A DNA stretch of 64,000 bases from Escherichia coli. Its GTDB lineage: Bacteria > Pseudomonadota > Gammaproteobacteria > Enterobacterales > Enterobacteriaceae. The position numbers were made by a program, and so were the translations under genes. Positions 33,036 to 53,958 of the stretch are shown piece by piece. Position 1 is the stretch's first letter. Each line of letters opens with the position of its first letter. The stretch lies in the NCBI RefSeq assembly GCF_003334815.1, contig NZ_QOWO01000005.1; one strand, given 5' to 3'. Under the pieces are notes generated by a model, which did not search any database, had not been told where the DNA came from, and saw only the letters and a list, made by a program, of their open reading frames with translations.

Positions 33036-33046
33036 ATTATAAAAAT

Positions 33047-33140
33047 TGCCTGATACGCTGCGCTTATCAGGCCTACAAGTTCAGCGATCTACATTAGCCG
33101 CATCCGGCATGAACAAAGCGCAGGAACAAGCGTCGCATCA
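33047..33140. repeat. BIME/REP palindromes between convergent lacA and cynX
   Basis: gcctgatacgctgcgcttatcaggcctacaagttcag...gccgcatccggcatgaac...gcgtcgcatca; last unit overlaps the cynX stop. Confidence 0.8.
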
Positions 33141-35593: not shown

Positions 35594-36493
35594 ATGCTCT
35601 CTCGACATATCAATTATTTTCTTGCCGTGGCTGAACATGGCAGCTTCACCCGTGCCGCCAGTGCGTTGCACGTCTCCCAACCTGCGCTTTCCCAGCAGAT
35701 TCGCCAGTTAGAGGAGAGTTTAGGCGTGCCGCTGTTTGACCGTAGCGGGCGAACGATTCGTCTCACTGATGCAGGAGAAGTCTGGCGACAGTACGCCAGC
35801 CGGGCGTTACAGGAACTGGGGGCGGGTAAACGGGCGATTCATGATGTTGCCGATCTGACGCGAGGATCGCTGCGTATCGCCGTCACCCCCACCTTTACGA
35901 GCTACTTTATCGGCCCCTTAATGGCGGATTTCTATGCGCGCTATCCCAGCATCACGCTCCAGCTACAGGAAATGTCGCAGGAGAAAATCGAGGATATGCT
36001 TTGCCGCGACGAGTTGGACGTTGGGATTGCCTTCGCGCCTGTGCATTCGCCGGAGCTGGAGGCAATTCCTTTACTGACAGAAAGTTTAGCGTTAGTCGTG
36101 GCGCAACATCATCCGCTGGCCGTCCATGAACAGGTGGCGTTGAGTCGCTTGCATGATGAAAAACTGGTCCTGCTCAGCGCGGAATTTGCCACCAGAGAGC
36201 AAATTGACCACTACTGCGAGAAAGCGGGGCTACATCCACAGGTGGTCATTGAGGCGAACTCAATTAGCGCGGTTCTGGAGCTGATTCGCCGCACTTCCCT
36301 TTCCACATTGTTACCAGCAGCGATTGCCACACAACATGACGGGCTTAAAGCTATTTCTCTTGCCCCGCCACTACTGGAGAGAACGGCGGTTTTGTTGCGG
36401 CGGAAAAATAGCTGGCAGACAGCCGCCGCGAAGGCATTTTTGCACATGGCGTTGGATAAATGCGCGGTTGTTGGCGGAAATGAATCACGGTAG
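35594..36493 (+). CDS. cynR: LysR-family activator of the cyn operon
   Basis: ORF track 35510..36493; start [41 protein letters not shown] at ATG 35594 gives 299 aa; divergent from cynT. Confidence 0.9.
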
Positions 36494-36520
36494 CCGCTGA
36501 CACAGGTCTGCGGCTGGAAT

Positions 36521-36602
36521 TGCCTGATGCGCTACGCTTATCAGGCCTACGAGTTCAGTGCTCTACGTAGGCCGGATAAGGCGTTCACGCCGCATCCGGC
36601 AT
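36521..36602. repeat. BIME/REP palindromes between cynR and codA
   Basis: gcctgatgcgctacgcttatcaggcctac...gtaggccggataaggcgttcacgccgcatccggc. Confidence 0.8.
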
Positions 36603-36629
36603 AAACTAAGCTCGCTGTAACCCAGTCGT

Positions 36630-39314: not shown

Positions 39315-39486
39315 GTAGGCCTGATAAGACGCGTCAGCGTCGCATCAGGCATCTGAGCATGGTGTCGGATGCGACGCGAGCGCCTTATCCGACCTACGGT
39401 TCAGGTCCGTAGGCATGATAAAACGCGTCAGCGTCGCATCAGGCATCGGCACACAGTGCCGGATGCACCGCGCGACGCATCCGACA
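39315..39486. repeat. BIME: several REP palindromes between codB promoter region and prpE 3' end
   Basis: gtaggcctgataagacgcgtcagcgtcgcatcaggcat...gtcggatgcgacgcgagcgccttatccgacctac... repeated. Confidence 0.85.
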
Positions 39487-39491
39487 ATAAC

Positions 39492-41378
39492 CTACTCTTC
39501 CATCGCCTGGCGGATCTGATCCAACGACGCAGGATCATCAATGGTCGTCAGATCTCCAGGATCGCGTCCTTCGCAAATCGCCTGGATCGTGCGGCGCAGC
39601 ATTTTTCCGGATCGCGTTTTTGGCAATTGCGAGACAAACCAGACGTGCGCCGGGCGGCCAAAGTTGCCAATCTGGCTGTCCACCAGCGCCATAATCGCCT
39701 TCTCTTGCGAGTGCGCCACATCACGATCTTCCAGACTGTCGCTCTCTTTCGGAATGACAAACGCCACCGCCACCTGCCCTTTCAGCGCATCTTTCACCCC
39801 AACCACCGCCACTTCGGCAACGCCCGGATGGCTGGAGATACTCTCTTCAATCTCGCGCGTCCCCAGCCGATGCCCGGCAACGTTAATTACATCGTCAGTG
39901 CGCCCGAGAATAAAGTGATAACCGTCAGCGTCACGGATGCCCCAGTCAAAGGTGGCGTACACCGGGCGGGAAAACAGCGACCAGTAAGTCTTCACAAAGC
40001 GGCCGTCGTCGCCCCAGATGGTCTGAATACACCCCGGCGGCAGCGGCCCTTCCACCACCAGCATCCCTTTCTCGTTGACGCCACACGGTTCGCCGGTGAC
40101 TTCATTAAGCAACTGCACGTTATAGCCATACATCGGCACACCGGGGCTTCCCAGACGCGTCGGCCTGTCGTCCAGACCGCGAGCAATCGCCATAATCGGC
40201 CAGCCGGATTCGGTCTGCCAGTAGTTGTCGATGACCGGCACATCCAGCGTATTGCTCACCCAACTGGCGGTCGGCTCGTCCAGCGGTTCTCCAGCCAGAT
40301 AGAGCACTTCCAGCGACGAGAGATCGTGTTTGCGAATTTCAGCGGTAGGGAATTTTTTCAGCACGCGAATGGCGGTCGGCGCTGAGAACATCCGGCTAAC
40401 CTGATATTTCTCGACGATTTTCCACCACACGCCGCAGTCCGGCCAGGTCGGCAATCCTTCGTAAACGATAGTCGCCATCCCCGCCAGCAGCGGCGCGTAA
40501 ACGATATACGAATGCCCCACCACCCAGCCGATATCCGATGCGCAAAAGAACACGCTGCCCGCTTTGCCGCCAAAAATGGTGTCCATCGAGGTCGCCAGCG
40601 CCACCGCATATCCGCCGACGTCACGCTGCACGCCTTTAGGTTTGCCGGTCGTGCCGGAAGTGTAGAGAATGCAGGAGGTTTCGTTGGATTCCAGCCACGC
40701 CACCGGTACCCGCGCGCCGATGTGTTGATGGCGCAACGACGCGAAATCGACATCCCGCCCGCTGACGCGCGCCATTTTCGCCAGCCCGCGATCCACCAGC
40801 AAAACATGGCGTGGCTGGTGCTGCGCCTGACTTATCGCATCGTCGAGCAATTTTTTATAGGGAATGATTTTGCCACCGCGCGCTCCGGCATCAGCCGAGA
40901 CAATCAGCACCGGTTTAGCGTCATCAATTCGCGCCGCCACGCTGTGCGAGGCAAATCCACCAAACACCACCGAGTGAATAGCGCCAATGCGCGCGCAGGC
41001 CAGCAGAGTAATATGCGCTTCGGCAATCATCGGCATATACACCAGCACCCGATCGCCGCGCTGCACACCCAATGAACGCAACATTGAGGCCACCGCGTTC
41101 ACTTCGTCATGCAGCTGACGAAAGGTAAAGGTGCGCTCTTCTTCTGTTTCCGAAGAGACGGCAATCAGCGCCAGCGCCTCTGGCTGTTTCTCCAGCCAGC
41201 GGTCGATGGCGTTGTGGCACAAGTTGGTTCGGCCTTCACAAAACCAACGGGCAAACGGCGGATTGCTGTGATCGAGCGTTTGCGTAAAGGGCGTCTGCCA
41301 GTCAATACGCCGGGCCTGCTCGGCCCAGAACTGCTCCGGTTCGTTAATCGAACGCTGATAAAATTCGCTAAAAGACAT
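39492..41378 (-). CDS. prpE: Propionyl-CoA synthetase
   Basis: 628 aa acyl-CoA synthetase; AMP-binding motif YTSGTTGKPKG. Confidence 0.95.
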   Translation of the reverse strand: MSFSEFYQRSINEPEQFWAEQARRIDWQTPFTQTLDHSNPPFARWFCEGRTNLCHNAIDRWLEKQPEALALIAVSSETEEERTFTFRQLHDEVNAVASMLRSLGVQRGDRVLVYMPMIAEAHITLLACARIGAIHSVVFGGFASHSVAARIDDAKPVLIVSADAGARGGKIIPYKKLLDDAISQAQHQPRHVLLVDRGLAKMARVSGRDVDFASLRHQHIGARVPVAWLESNETSCILYTSGTTGKPKGVQRDVGGYAVALATSMDTIFGGKAGSVFFCASDIGWVVGHSYIVYAPLLAGMATIVYEGLPTWPDCGVWWKIVEKYQVSRMFSAPTAIRVLKKFPTAEIRKHDLSSLEVLYLAGEPLDEPTASWVSNTLDVPVIDNYWQTESGWPIMAIARGLDDRPTRLGSPGVPMYGYNVQLLNEVTGEPCGVNEKGMLVVEGPLPPGCIQTIWGDDGRFVKTYWSLFSRPVYATFDWGIRDADGYHFILGRTDDVINVAGHRLGTREIEESISSHPGVAEVAVVGVKDALKGQVAVAFVIPKESDSLEDRDVAHSQEKAIMALVDSQIGNFGRPAHVWFVSQLPKTRSGKMLRRTIQAICEGRDPGDLTTIDDPASLDQIRQAMEE

Positions 41379-41417: not shown

Positions 41418-42869
41418 TTAAATGACGTACAGGTCGAGATACTCATTGACCGGCATCTGTTCCAGGCGAGCTCTGTCGAGAGAAACCTCCAGAATGCGCT
41501 GCTGTTGGCGAGTCGGGAACTGGCGCGCGAGATTGATTTTGAATTTATCGACCAGTTTCGGAATACCATCCTGACGGCGGCGAGCATGACCAATGGGGTA
41601 CTCCACCACCACTTCTTCAAATCGTGTGCCGTCGGTGAACTCAAGGGTAATGGCATTGGCGATGGCGCGTTTTTCCGGGTCGTGGTAGTCAGCGGTAAAT
41701 GCCGGATCTTCAAAGCAATTGATCTTCTCGCGCAGGGCGTCAATGCGTTTATCTTGCGCAACGTTGTCCTCGTAATCTGCCGCCGTTAAGCGCCCGAATA
41801 GCAGCGGGATCGCCACCATGTACTGAATGCAGTGATCGCGGTCTGCCGGGTTATTGAGCGGCCCTTTTTTGTCGATGATGCGAATACAGGCTTCGTGGGT
41901 GCGAATGGTCACTTTTTCGATATCCGCCGCCGTTTTGCCTGCTGCCTGCATCTGTTCATAGAGCGTCATCGCTGCTTCAACTGCCGTCTGGGAGTGGAAC
42001 TCCGCCGGGAAGGAGATTTTGAACAGCACATTTTCCATAACGTAGGAACCGTACGGGCGCTGGAAGCGGAACGATTCACCTTTAAAGGAGACGTCGTAGA
42101 AGCCCCACACCGGCGCAGTCAGGGCTGACGGGTAACCCATTTCGCCCGTTTTCGCCATCAGTGCCAGACGTACCGCGCGGGAAGTGGCATCGCCCGCCGC
42201 CCAGGATTTACGCGTGCCGGTGTTCGGCGCATGGCGATAGGTGCGCAGCGACTGACCGTCCACCCACGCCAGCGAAACGGCGTTGAGAATTTCCTCGCGG
42301 GTCAGGCCGAGCATTTCGGCGACCACGGCGGTGGAAGCCACTTTCACTAACAGAACGTGGTCGAGGCCGACGCGGTTAAAGGAGTTTTCCAGCGCGATGC
42401 AGCCCTGAATTTCATGGGCTTTGATCATTGCGGTCAGCACCTGTTTCATGGTCAACGGCGCTTTGCCGCTGGCGACCGCGTTGCGCGAAAGCCAGTCCGC
42501 CGTTGCCAGAATGCCGCCGAGGTTGTCGGAAGGATGGCCCCACTCCGCCGCCAGCCAGGTATCGTTGAAATCGAGCCAGCGGATCATCGCGCCGATGTTA
42601 AATGCCGCCTGGACGGGGTCGAGCTGGAACTGAGTTCCGGGGACGCGCACGCCGTTGGGTACGACGGTGCCGGGAACAATTGGCCCCAGCAGTTTTTTAC
42701 AGGCCGGGTATTCGAGAGCTTCCAGACCGCAGCCGAGCGTGTCGAGCAGGCAGTAATGTGCGGTGTCGTAGGCCACTTTAGAGCTGATTTCGTAGTTCAT
42801 GACGTAATCGACGATATCAACGATTTCACGATCAAATTCCGGGCGGATGTTGTTGATTTGAGCTGACAT
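41418..42869 (-). CDS. prpD: 2-methylcitrate dehydratase
   Basis: 483 aa ORF. Confidence 0.95.
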
Positions 42870-42902: not shown

Positions 42903-44072
42903 TTACTGGCGCTTATCCAGCGCGACAAACGGGCGGTCTTCCGGTCCAACATAATTGGCGGAAGGACGGATAATTTTGTTGTCCTGACGTTGTTCGATAA
43001 TGTGCGCCGCCCAGCCGGTGACGCGGGCGATAACAAACAGTGGTGTGAACATCTCGGTGGGAACGCCCATCATGTTGTAGGAAACAGCAGAGAACCAGTC
43101 GAGATTGGGGAACATCTTTTTGCTCTCCCACATCACCGTTTCCAGGCGATCGGCGATGTTGTACATCTTCAGCGAGCCGCCTTCCTGCGAGAGCTGCTTC
43201 GCCACACGTTTAATCACCTGGTGGCGCGGGTCAGCGATGGTGTAAACCGGATGACCAAAACCAATGACCACTTCTTTGTTTTCCACGCGCTTGCGGATAT
43301 CTGCTTCGGCTTCGTCCGGCGTTTCGTAGCGTTGCTGGATCTCCAGCGACACTTCATTCGCCCCGCCGTGTTTTGGCCCGCGCAGTGCGCCAATCGCGCC
43401 AATAATCGCGGAATACATATCAGAGCCGGTGCCCGCAATCACCCGACTGGTAAAGGTGGAGGCGTTAAACTCGTGTTCGGCGTACAGCACCAGCGAGATA
43501 TGCATCGCCTTTTCCCAGCTTTGCGATGGCTTTTCGCCGTGCATCAGATGCAGGAAGTGACCGCCGATGGAGTCGTCATCGGTTTCCGGTTGGATGCGTT
43601 CGCCGTTGTGGCTGTAGTGATACCAATAAAGGAGAATCGAGCTAAGCGACGCCAGCAGTTTGTCGGCAATATCCCGCGCGCCAGAGACGGTATGCCCCTC
43701 TTTTTCTGGCAGCGTGCAGCCGAGCGCGGAAACACCGGTGCGCATAACATCCATCGGGTGCGACGCCGCCGGTAAGGCTTCCAGCACGGTACGCACGTTA
43801 GCCGGTAAACCGCGCAGGGCTTTCAGTTTCGTTTTGTAAGCGGCGAGTTCGTCACGGGTCGGCAGTTTGCCGTGGATCAGCAGATGCGCCACTTCTTCAA
43901 ATTCGCAATGTTTCGCCAGATCAAGAATATCGTAGCCGCGGTAATGCAGGTCATTGCCACTTTTACCCACGGTGCAGAGCGCCGTATTGCCCGCCGGAAC
44001 GCCAGAAAGTGCCACAGATTTTTTCGGTTTAATGACATGGGTACTGTTTTGCAGGATCGTTGTGTCGCTCAT
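42903..44072 (-). CDS. prpC: 2-methylcitrate synthase
   Basis: 389 aa citrate-synthase family. Confidence 0.95.
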
Positions 44073-44112
44073 GTTGTCCTCGTCATTGTTATCATTTGTA
44101 GGGTCGAGATTG

Positions 44113-44392
44113 TTGTCGGATGCGACGCTATGCGTCTTATCCGACCTACAGTTCAGTTCACCCCGTAGGCCTGATAAGTCGCGTCAGCGGCGCATCAGGC
44201 ATCGGTTGTCGGATGCGACGCTATGCGTCTTATCCGACCTACAGTTCAGTGCACCCCGTAGGCCTGATAAGTCACGTCAGCGGCGCATCAGGCATCGGTT
44301 GTCGGATGCGACGCCATCCGTCTTATCCGACCTACAGTTCAGTGCACCTCGTAGGCCTGATAAGTCGCGTCAGCGACGCATCAGGCATCGGC
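44113..44392. repeat. BIME: three tandem ~93-bp REP-containing units inside the prp operon (prpB-prpC spacer)
   Basis: Three near-identical copies of gtcggatgcgacgctatgcgtcttatccgacctacagttcagtgcaccccgtaggcctgataagtcgcgtcagcggcgcatcaggcatcggtt. Confidence 0.9.
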
Positions 44393-44418
44393 TGTCGAAT
44401 ACAATCAACGGGCGTTTT

Positions 44419-45309
44419 TTATTTCACCTGGCTACGGGCAAACAGGTTGTCGAGCTTCTCTTCGTACTGGTAGTAGTTGATGCTTTCGTACAGCTCGTTG
44501 CGGGTCTGCATGGTGTCGATGACGCTTTTCTGCGTGCCTTCCTGGCGCAGGACGTTGTAGACATGTTCAGCGGCGCGGTTCATGGCGCGGAACGCTGAAA
44601 GTGGGTACAGCGCCATTGCGACATGGGCGCTGCGTAATTCGTCGGTGGTAAACAGCGGCGTGGCACCAAATTCGGTGATGTTGGCGAGGATCGGCACCTG
44701 CACCGCATCGGCAAACTGGCGGTACATGGCGAGTTCGGTAATCGCCTCCGGGAACAACATCTCGGCACCCGCTTCAACATAGGCCTGCGCACGCTCGATC
44801 GCCGCATCCAGCCCCTCTACCGCCAGAGCATCGGTGCGCGCCATGATCACAAAATCAGGATCGGTTTTCGCATCCACCGCCGCGCGGATCCGATCCACCA
44901 TCTCTTCTTTCGAGACGATCGCTTTATTCGGACGATGACCGCAGCGTTTCGCACCAACCTGATCTTCAATATGCAATCCTGCCGCACCGGCTTTAATCAT
45001 CGATTTCACGGTGCGCGCCACGTTAAAGGCCGAAGAACCAAAACCGATATCCGCATCCACCAGCAGCGGCAGCGAACAAACGTCGGTGATACGGCGAATG
45101 TCGGTCAGCACATCATCAAGGGTAGAAATACCGAGATCGGGCAGCCCCAGCGAACCTGCCGCCACGCCACCGCCAGAAAGATAAATTGCCTGATATCCGG
45201 CACGCTGCGCCAACAGCGCATGATTAGCGTTGATGGTGCCAACAATCTGCAATGGATTTTCTTTAGTCAGTGCAGCGCGAAACGCTTTACCTGGAGAGTG
45301 TAGAGACAT
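44419..45309 (-). CDS. prpB: 2-methylisocitrate lyase
   Basis: 296 aa ORF. Confidence 0.95.
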
Positions 45310-45355: not shown

Positions 45356-45371
45356 AGCAAGGGGTGTGCCA
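45356..45371 (-). promoter_or_regulatory. Sigma-54 (-24/-12) promoter of prpBCDE
   Basis: Minus-strand TGGCAC-ACCCC-TTGCT (plus strand agcaaggggtgtgcca); predicted start about 35 nt upstream of the prpB ATG; PrpR is a sigma-54 activator. Confidence 0.8.
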
Positions 45372-53873: not shown

Positions 53874-53958
53874 AATGCCTGATGCGCTACGCTTATCAGG
53901 CCTACAGATTCTTGCGCCATTCGTAGGCCGGATAAGGCGTTCACGCCGCATCCGGCAT
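53874..53958. repeat. BIME/REP palindromes between yahG and yahI
   Basis: gcctgatgcgctacgcttatcaggcctacag...gtaggccggataaggcgttcacgccgcatccggcatgaac. Confidence 0.8.

Follow-up and report, generated by a model that had tools for sequence, protein, structure and literature searches.

A tandem BIME-2 array between prpB and prpC of Escherichia coli: structure, variation in unit number and a possible role in prp mRNA decay

BIME-2 elements are composed of z2 and y REPs placed in inverse orientation and joined by a short S linker (Ton-Hoang et al. 2012, PMC3333891, summarising Gilson/Bachellier). When transcribed, REPs and similar stem-loops block PNPase and RNase II, so that stable 3' ends form at them, and BIMEs can also bring about attenuation that depends on Rho (PMC6061677, with reference to Newbury 1987, Khemici and Carpousis 2004 and Espeli 2001). 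The REP doublet is thought to be the unit that is mobilised or amplified by a single-copy REP-associated tyrosine transposase (PMC3116915, PMC3333891), and E. coli K-12 carries one gene of this kind, TnpA_REP (RAYT; PMC3333891). HU binding and nucleoid condensation have been shown only for the products of REP325 (PMC4550694).

The prpBCDE operon requires sigma-54 and PrpR (PMC5566544), and its transcript is polycistronic under aerobic conditions (Simonte 2017, as cited in PMC7360682). In MG1655, prpC is co-regulated with prpB across an array of four repeat units (PMC4512719). The induction of prpB, determined by qRT-PCR, exceeds that of the downstream genes (Pobeguts et al., PMC7360682). Post-transcriptional control of prp via RNase R, possibly at these repeats, is attributed to Simonte 2017 by PMC7360682; as the same work is summarised in PMC5371410 and PMC10240344, RNase R hydrolyses the prpBCDE mRNA and an rnr mutant gains anoxic propionate use. 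MG1655 and an isolate from Crohn's disease do not have the same number of prpB-prpC repeats (PMC7360682). Both the strain-variable repeat number and a post-transcriptional role are already in print, as is the suggestion that repeat number is linked to strain differences in propionate use. The additions made here are modest: a quantified polymorphism of 0 to 5 units, and the observation that prpB is followed by unrelated palindromic elements in other lineages.

The array described below lies in a 64,000-nt stretch of a phylogroup A, K-12-like E. coli genome, referred to as the window. It is a canonical BIME-2, with pairs of y and z2 REPs that alternate in orientation, stand in tandem and are extragenic.

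Structure of the prp operon and of the array

The prp operon is read from the - strand of the window. Its first gene, prpB, encodes 2-methylisocitrate lyase (44419..45309; NCBIfam NF008455, 561 bits against a cut-off of 353) and is followed by prpC for 2-methylcitrate synthase (42903..44072; NCBIfam NF009006, 719 bits) and by the distal genes prpD (41418-42869) and prpE (39492-41378), which match the NCBIfam equivalogs TIGR02330 and TIGR02316. The prpR gene is divergent from prpBCDE, and all five prp genes score far over the NCBIfam equivalog cut-offs. A pattern scan revealed a sigma-54 type promoter, TGGCACACCCCTTGCT, at 45356..45371 on the - strand, 46 nt upstream of the prpB ATG; this was the sole match, and no such site was found in the prpB-prpC spacer. 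A consensus scan of the - strand of the spacer found neither a sigma-70-like promoter nor an intrinsic terminator.

From the stop codon of prpB to the start of prpC the spacer measures 346 bp; the array lies wholly inside it and is extragenic. Tandem Repeats Finder (TRF) described it as a repeat of period 93 with 3.1 copies, 95% matches and a score of 523 at 44112..44397, the top-scoring array of the window. The array, which would be transcribed on the - strand with prpBCDE, was delimited by TRF, by an in-register listing of the units and by the Rfam family naRNA4. The units occupy 44112-44204, 44205-44297 and 44298-44390, and a degenerate partial y-REP head, GCTGTCGAATACAA, closes the array at 44391-~44404. 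There are 2 mismatches between units 1 and 2, and 5 between unit 3 and either of them. The initial annotation had placed three near-identical REP-containing units of about 93 bp between prpB and prpC, and TRF, the unit listing and the REP scan all confirmed this.

A fuzzy scan for REP tails showed that each unit pairs a y-type REP with a z2-type REP of inverse orientation. The y-type REPs are found on the + strand at 44114-44149, 44207-44242 and 44300-44335; they represent a variant, TGTCGGATGCGACGC...TTATCCGACCTAC (in full TGTCGGATGCGACGCTATGCGTCTTATCCGACCTAC), that ends in CTAC, and on the mRNA strand they are read GTAG-first. The z2-type REPs, TGCCTGATGCGCCGCTGACGCGACTTATCAGGCCTAC (TGCCTGATGCG..CTTATCAGGCCTAC), are located on the - strand at 44165-44200, 44258-44293 and 44351-44386. 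Orientation alternates strictly along the array, and CTAC (+) or GTAG (-) is present in all six REPs. Linkers of 15 nt join the REP tails and linkers of about 7 nt their heads; these lengths are compatible with S and s. A search for inverted repeats with a 9-nt seed detected none in the array, because the REP stems are interrupted too often.

The features shared with described BIME-2s are (i) the alternation of y and z2, (ii) GTAG or CTAC beside each imperfect palindrome, and (iii) a tandem, extragenic arrangement with a copy number that varies among strains at a given locus; the tail-to-tail linker of 15 nt appears comparably short. There are also differences. In the outer stem of the prp y REP, GCCGGAT...ATCCGGC is replaced by GTCGGAT...ATCCGAC, where the change on one side is compensated on the other, and the inner stem is similar to the one of z2. 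The head-to-head linker of about 7 nt is shorter than that of REP325 and of the BIME-2s nearby, which has 13 nt. The naRNA4 model (RF02564) scored 63.1, 57.7 and 35.1 bits on the - strand across the three units, so that one of the three exceeds the gathering threshold of 59.5 bits; on this best unit the Y-l-Z2 model aligned end to end. Since the family was built on the Y-l-Z2 unit of REP325, a match on the prp array means just a BIME-2 unit. The opposite strand of the array scores as well (55.9 bits), which indicates that the model detects generic BIME-2 sequence and not a specific gene.

In RNA structure prediction, which the initial annotation had proposed as a check, each REP is predicted to fold alone into a stable hairpin. 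On the mRNA strand a single y REP gave -17.7 kcal/mol (z=-4.2) and a single z2 REP -21.5 kcal/mol (z=-3.3), while the whole 366-nt spacer RNA gave -150.3 kcal/mol (z=-7.7), with the six REPs forming separate hairpins. The hairpins carry no U-tract. The first REP stem begins 32 nt downstream of the prpB stop codon, and the ribosome-binding site of prpC (GAGGA), about 38 nt past the last REP, is predicted to be unpaired in the fold of the spacer.

When 16 distinct units, drawn from 8 alleles, were compared, variation was rarer in the stems: it affected 7 of the 56 paired columns versus 17 of 37 unpaired ones (Fisher P=5e-4). Pairing is kept in 97.8% of the cells, yet covariation in the stems of these 16 units was not above that of shuffled controls; the test is uninformative because the units are too alike (95% identity). 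The stems are conserved, and the cause could equally be RNA function, DNA function, recognition by the transposase or the recent common origin of the units.

Unit number and the prpB-prpC junction in other genomes

Unit number in E. coli was determined with a query consisting of the two flanks only, which matched 5,222 records in 5,220 of 5,426 complete genomes. Unit classes were assigned from the flank-to-flank distance in 59 records, sampled at regular intervals along the ranked list of the 5,222; the unit counts refer to this sample, and repeat collapse during assembly is possible in individual records. A span of 544 bp, corresponding to no unit, was found in 23 of the 59 records (about 39%), and a span of 655 or 659 bp, corresponding to one unit, in 16 (27%). 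Three units (846 bp) were present in 3 records (5%), four units (939 bp), the class of MG1655, in 15 (25%), and five units (1032 bp) in 2 (3%). The proportions of the sample recur in the identity bands of the full search, where 2,051 records at 90-95% identity represent the gapped no-unit class. Alignment of class examples showed that the prpB-prpC spacer of the no-unit allele has 44 bp and is REP-free.

MG1655 carries four units in a spacer of 439 bp, the window three in 346 bp, and K-12 GM4792 likewise three. Unit number follows flank identity, that is, lineage, with occasional shifts of at least one unit inside a lineage. The comparison of the 93-bp unit across strains, which the initial annotation had recommended, consequently describes a polymorphic locus with 0, 1, 3, 4 or 5 units. 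The range of 0 to 5 units among the sampled genomes indicates that the array is dispensable and changes over time.

The window is 100% identical to GM4792 over 701 bp around the array and 100% identical to LR-64-2 over window positions 1-25000, and neither genome is collinear with the window throughout. In whole-window blastn, the window differed from GM4792 in lacking IS2 and IS3 copies and in its intact lacI-lacZ junction. REP overlaps with yaiL, lacA and cynX and a lacI-lacZ fusion, seen on a map based on GM4792, were recognised in the same search as artefacts of that map. LR-64-2 departs from the window beyond 25 kb, where yahJ contains a phage remnant and the prp array has 4 units. Three REP sites other than prp are shorter in the window than in GM4792, by 201, 199 and 184 nt. 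These further length differences point to REP arrays, along with IS elements, as the principal structural variables, and as what chiefly sets near-identical E. coli genomes apart in structure in this region. The array also has a value for annotation, as it accounts for spurious ORFs and for differences in assembly length at the prp locus.

Beyond E. coli, the genomes of 80 species supplied prpB loci whose prpB-prpC spacers were examined. In E. albertii there are 7 REPs, with the y/z2 type and the flanks as in E. coli, and one unit is present in a cryptic Escherichia clade; the presence of REPs at this junction in both indicates that the insertion is older than E. coli. The REPs of Citrobacter species, one or two in number, belong to another subtype; there are two REPs in Salmonella arizonae and diarizonae, and a remnant is left in Kluyvera. 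In Salmonella arizonae/diarizonae, several Citrobacter and Kluyvera the stop codon of prpB is the TAG of the REP's own GTAG (a distance of 0 nt), and PrpB is 4 residues shorter where its stop lies in this motif. The spacer is short and unstructured, or missing, in Pseudocitrobacter, Shimwellia, Providencia and Xenorhabdus. Morganella psychrotolerans carries an unrelated long palindrome of -40 to -58 kcal/mol (2 of 4 Morganella loci, both M. psychrotolerans), and in Janthinobacterium a GC-rich hairpin stands right after prpB in 9 of 12 loci. Judged from these sequences, palindromic elements have settled at the prpB-prpC junction several times independently. Their recurrence after prpB is compatible with selection for a hairpin and also with a junction that is a permissive landing site.

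Other REP sites in the window

The REP-tail scan located 24 REPs at 8 loci within the window. Two loci besides prp are tandem BIME-2s: one of 4 REPs with period 100 at 16957..17163, between the convergent frmB/fghA and yaiL, and one of 5 REPs with period 101 at 19104..19366, between mhpE and mhpT, which has two units fewer than K-12 GM4792. Directly after prpE, at 39315..39486 on the - strand, a second BIME of the prp locus forms a BIME-2-like array of z2, y and z2 REPs with a 13-bp REP-like hairpin that begins 5 nt past the prpE stop codon; naRNA4 scores 71.6 bits at this site. Pairs of a z1 and a y REP, not in tandem, occur at 36521..36602 between the convergent cynR and codA and at 53874..53958 between yahG and yahI. 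The latter BIME is longer in K-12 and in LR-64-2, where an ORF, 'yahH', is called through it. One intact z1-like REP with degenerate y and z2 remnants is found at 33039..33140 between the convergent lacA and cynX. Finally, a single y-variant REP on the + strand at 32364..32401, in the lacY-lacA spacer 9 nt past the lacY stop, is a second intra-operon REP that was absent from the initial list. That list had named six further BIME sites; REPs are present at all six, although two of these are single z1+y pairs and one consists mostly of remnants.

In the literature, the number of annotated REP elements in the genome is 355 (PMC4550694), and 584 REPs of types y, z1 and z2 are counted in K-12 (PMC3333891). 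For 64 kb of a 4.64 Mb genome the expectation is 4.9 loci and 8.05 REPs. The 8 loci observed do not differ significantly from it (Poisson P=0.12); the 24 single REPs are a 3-fold excess over 8.05, with a P value that is inflated because REPs are clustered. The REP density of the window is therefore mildly high and not unusual, and the unusually high density of BIMEs claimed at the outset finds no support at the level of loci. The accompanying statement that BIMEs flank most operons is valid for multigene operons, about 7 of 10 of which have REPs, located at the 3' end; it does not extend to transcription units in general, where about 9 of roughly 33 are concerned (own count).

The initial annotation was also correct in ascribing spurious ORFs to BIMEs. 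A period of 93 nt equals 31 codons, and for this reason + strand ORFs of 117 aa (44120-44473) and 214 aa (43954-44598) run through the prp array. In other strains, PGAP calls a 179-aa 'hypothetical protein' within the 5-unit allele and 'YahH' within the yahG-yahI BIME of LR-64-2. In MG1655 the locus numbering jumps from b0331 (prpB) to b0333 (prpC), skipping b0332, from which we infer that an ORF once called between the two genes was later withdrawn.

Possible roles of the prp array and comparison with known systems

The general behaviour of transcribed REPs suggests a regulatory effect of the prp array. The reading favoured here, which is considered probable with moderate confidence, is that the BIME-2 array is co-transcribed with prpBCDE and acts as a modulatory barrier to RNA decay, which would favour PrpB, be sensitive to RNase R and be tuned by the number of units. 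Transcription would start at the sigma-54 promoter upstream of prpB, and the six REPs would form independent stable hairpins on the prp mRNA. The hairpins would stop the 3'-to-5' exonucleases PNPase and RNase II, leaving clearance to RNase R or the degradosome. The prpB segment would then outlast the prpCDE segment, possibly with some Rho-dependent attenuation in addition, and the outcome would be more PrpB than PrpC, PrpD and PrpE and a control point sensitive to RNase R. The strength of the barrier would be set by the unit number, from 0 to 5 among strains. The spread and amplification of such arrays is ascribed to the one REP-associated tyrosine transposase of the host and to slippage or unequal recombination between units; the changes in copy number at prp could stem from replication slippage or unequal recombination just as well as from the transposase.

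Some evidence runs counter to the decay barrier. The stems of the 16 distinct units showed no covariation above the shuffled controls. In MG1655 microarrays the fold changes of prpB and prpC were 17.0 vs 30.8 and 15.8 vs 17.6, values that are ratios and not absolute levels, and these ratios reveal no drop from prpB to prpC (PMC4512719). The operon moreover works with the 44-bp REP-free spacer in the no-unit class. As about 39% of the sampled genomes are without the array, any role must be modulatory and not required.

The same observations feed the main rival of the decay barrier, in which the array is a neutral or selfish repeat without regulatory consequence, tolerated in a non-coding spacer and drifting in copy number through slippage or the activity of the transposase. 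Such a repeat could well be missing from about 39% of genomes and range from 0 to 5 units across the sample; it could vary even among K-12 records (3 units in GM4792, 4 in MG1655), and three further REP arrays do differ from the K-12 length by 184 to 201 nt. The absence of a covariation signal among the 16 distinct units and the fold changes of prpC in MG1655, which are not below those of prpB (PMC4512719), point in the same direction. Nevertheless, neutrality is regarded as doubtful, since exonucleases should be hindered by any stable hairpin of a transcribed spacer, regardless of how it arose (PMC6061677). The published qRT-PCR, with prpB above the downstream genes (PMC7360682), the implication of RNase R reported through PMC5371410, and the unrelated palindromic elements at the same junction in several genera also speak against it.

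The decay barrier can be extended to a stronger proposal, which is speculative and judged unlikely: that the structured spacer after prpB is a selected control, tunable by unit number, on the PrpB:PrpCDE ratio, on RNase R sensitivity and on the use of propionate by a strain, and that lineages converged on it because an excess of PrpB limits toxic 2-methylcitrate/2-methylisocitrate. If this were true, unit number would contribute to strain differences in propionate lag, in anoxic growth and in the propionate responses of adherent-invasive E. coli (AIEC). Should unit number adjust the prpB/prpCDE balance or the sensitivity to RNase R, it would offer a simple natural source of strain differences in propionate metabolism. 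The prp operon serves as an inducible expression system and is relevant to propionate tolerance in the gut.

An action at the level of DNA, independent of the prp mRNA, is rated as improbable. The array would in that case be a strong gyrase site or a cruciform serving supercoiling, or would take part in nucleoid contacts through HU and naRNA. Gyrase cleavage is over-represented in BIME-2s, mainly in y REPs, and is independent of transcription; however, just a subset of BIME-2s is cleaved, and the prp locus is not named among them (PMC6379681). Cruciform bridging by naRNA4 and HU has been reported (PMC4550694), and Y-l-Z2 matches to naRNA4 occur on both strands of the prp array, one of them above the gathering score, but the model represents a generic BIME-2 unit and a match to it is silent on function. 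The presence/absence polymorphism also speaks against a structural requirement. A role of the DNA and a role of the RNA are compatible with each other.

Translational down-regulation of prpB, in which a REP near the stop codon stalls ribosomes and leads to cleavage of the mRNA and tmRNA tagging (Liang, Rudd and Deutscher 2015), has very little probability in Escherichia. According to the summary in bioRxiv 10.1101/2024.07.17.603846, the mechanism needs a REP at most 15 nt from the upstream gene; with 32 nt between the prpB stop and the REP it is not expected for Escherichia prpB and was rejected on this distance. The requirement agrees with the distance of 0 nt at prpB of Salmonella arizonae/diarizonae, several Citrobacter and Kluyvera, and with the hairpin 5 nt past the prpE stop and the REP 9 nt past the lacY stop in the window. 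The mechanism may apply to prpE and lacY here and to prpB in Salmonella and Citrobacter. The last reading, that the array encodes a protein, is practically negligible and was rejected: the + strand ORFs of the window and the 179-aa PGAP product of the 5-unit allele do exist, but these ORFs are periodic read-throughs of a 31-codon repeat, lie antisense to the prp operon, scale in length with unit number and are gone in no-unit alleles, and b0332 is skipped in MG1655.

Compared with known systems, the prp array resembles REP325/naRNA4 (RF02564; Qian et al. 2015, PMC4550694) in its tandem Y-linker-Z2 units; REP325 has six units and is co-transcribed from the upstream gene. In contrast to REP325, with its 77-bp units and a U motif, the prp array is formed from 93-bp units with a shorter linker. 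The doublet of REPs that makes up its unit measures about 90 nt, as in the REPIN-RAYT system (Bertels and Rainey 2011, PMC3116915; TnpA_REP, PMC3333891); the transposase gene lies outside the 64-kb window. The prp array is non-autonomous repetitive DNA of the REP/REPIN class.

The identification of the repeat as REP/BIME is right, and the role proposed for it in stabilising upstream mRNA and modulating polarity, which matches general REP behaviour and published hints, is partly supported; as the presence or absence of the array across strains shows, the operon functions without it and the role is not essential. The REP stabiliser of malE-malF (Newbury et al. 1987, as cited in PMC6061677) differs from the prp array, which is larger (6 REPs) and absent from many strains. 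As that citation presents the malE-malF case, the two have in common REP hairpins that separate the first gene of a catabolic or transport operon from its distal genes, and in both a longer-lived upstream segment, and with it differential expression within one transcript, would be expected.

Length variation of BIMEs and their annotation as genes

The alignment of the window with the K-12 genome GM4792 (about 99.9% identical) revealed that the large differences between them relate only to BIME length changes and IS elements. Three REP loci other than the prpB–prpC array are shorter in the window than in GM4792: mhpE–mhpT (19121–19362) by 201 nt, cynR–codA (36410–36615) by 199 nt and yahG–yahI (53874–53957) by 184 nt. 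The window lacks the IS3 copy by which the autotransporter gene yaiT is interrupted in K-12, and likewise the IS2 copy close to yaiP/yaiO (the sites without these copies lie at ~4112–4115 and ~13226–13231), and in the matching genome LR-64-2 the autotransporter ORF is unbroken (locus 2664–5570).

Two protein-coding calls of the PGAP pipeline consist purely of BIME sequence: the 179-aa “hypothetical protein” WP_001526095.1 within the five-unit prp array of another E. coli genome (L008, 498–1037), and “protein YahH” (WP_001295687.1) within the yahG–yahI BIME of the LR-64-2 region (L090, 25301–25597).

REP elements near lacY and prpE and their variant stem

A single y-variant REP (32364–32401), absent from the initial annotation, occupies the lacY–lacA intercistronic spacer and is a second intra-operon REP. 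Its stem begins 9 nt behind the lacY stop codon, inside the 15-nt limit of the proposed model in which REPs down-regulate translation (Liang, Rudd and Deutscher 2015). The promoter-proximal end of the BIME located 3' of the prp operon is formed by a REP-like hairpin of 13 bp (39447–39486; GUCGGAUGCGUCG..CGGUGCAUCCGGC), which is devoid of the GTAG tail and begins 5 nt beyond the stop codon of prpE.

An outer stem unusual for y-REP, GTCGGAT...ATCCGAC, is common to four adjacent REP loci within 12 kb (32364–32401, 39362–39397, 39447–39486 and 44114–44335); all remaining y REPs of the window possess the canonical GCCGGAT...ATCCGGC. Local spread or gene conversion is a possible cause of this clustering.

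The prpB–prpC junction in other genera

The TAG within the conserved REP GTAG serves as the stop codon of prpB in Salmonella arizonae and diarizonae, several Citrobacter and Kluyvera (loci L011, L018, L027, L028 and L012, at about 2376–2400 in each), and PrpB is four residues shorter at its end there than its counterparts from Escherichia and Pseudocitrobacter. The 3' end of prpB appears to have been re-made by REP insertion in these loci. The junction is occupied by non-REP elements in both Morganella psychrotolerans, whose spacer (L061, L075) contains a long palindrome of 136–187 nt, and Janthinobacterium, where a GC-rich hairpin lies directly 3' of prpB in nine of the 12 loci (including L052 and L056); both are unrelated to REPs.

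Upstream of prpC, the motif CCCTAC(A) is present in Escherichia, Citrobacter, Kluyvera, Salmonella, Pseudocitrobacter and Shimwellia, independently of REPs, being seen with and without them. It is located 31 nt 5' of the prpC start codon in the window (44099–44104, minus strand) and at the same distance in 21 loci of L009–L030, L077 and L082; in one Pseudocitrobacter locus the distance is 30 nt. In Providencia, a similar CCCCTACAAGGA adjoins the ribosome-binding site. The motif resembles a REP tail and also the CC^TAC core at which TnpA_REP, the REP-associated tyrosine transposase, cuts.
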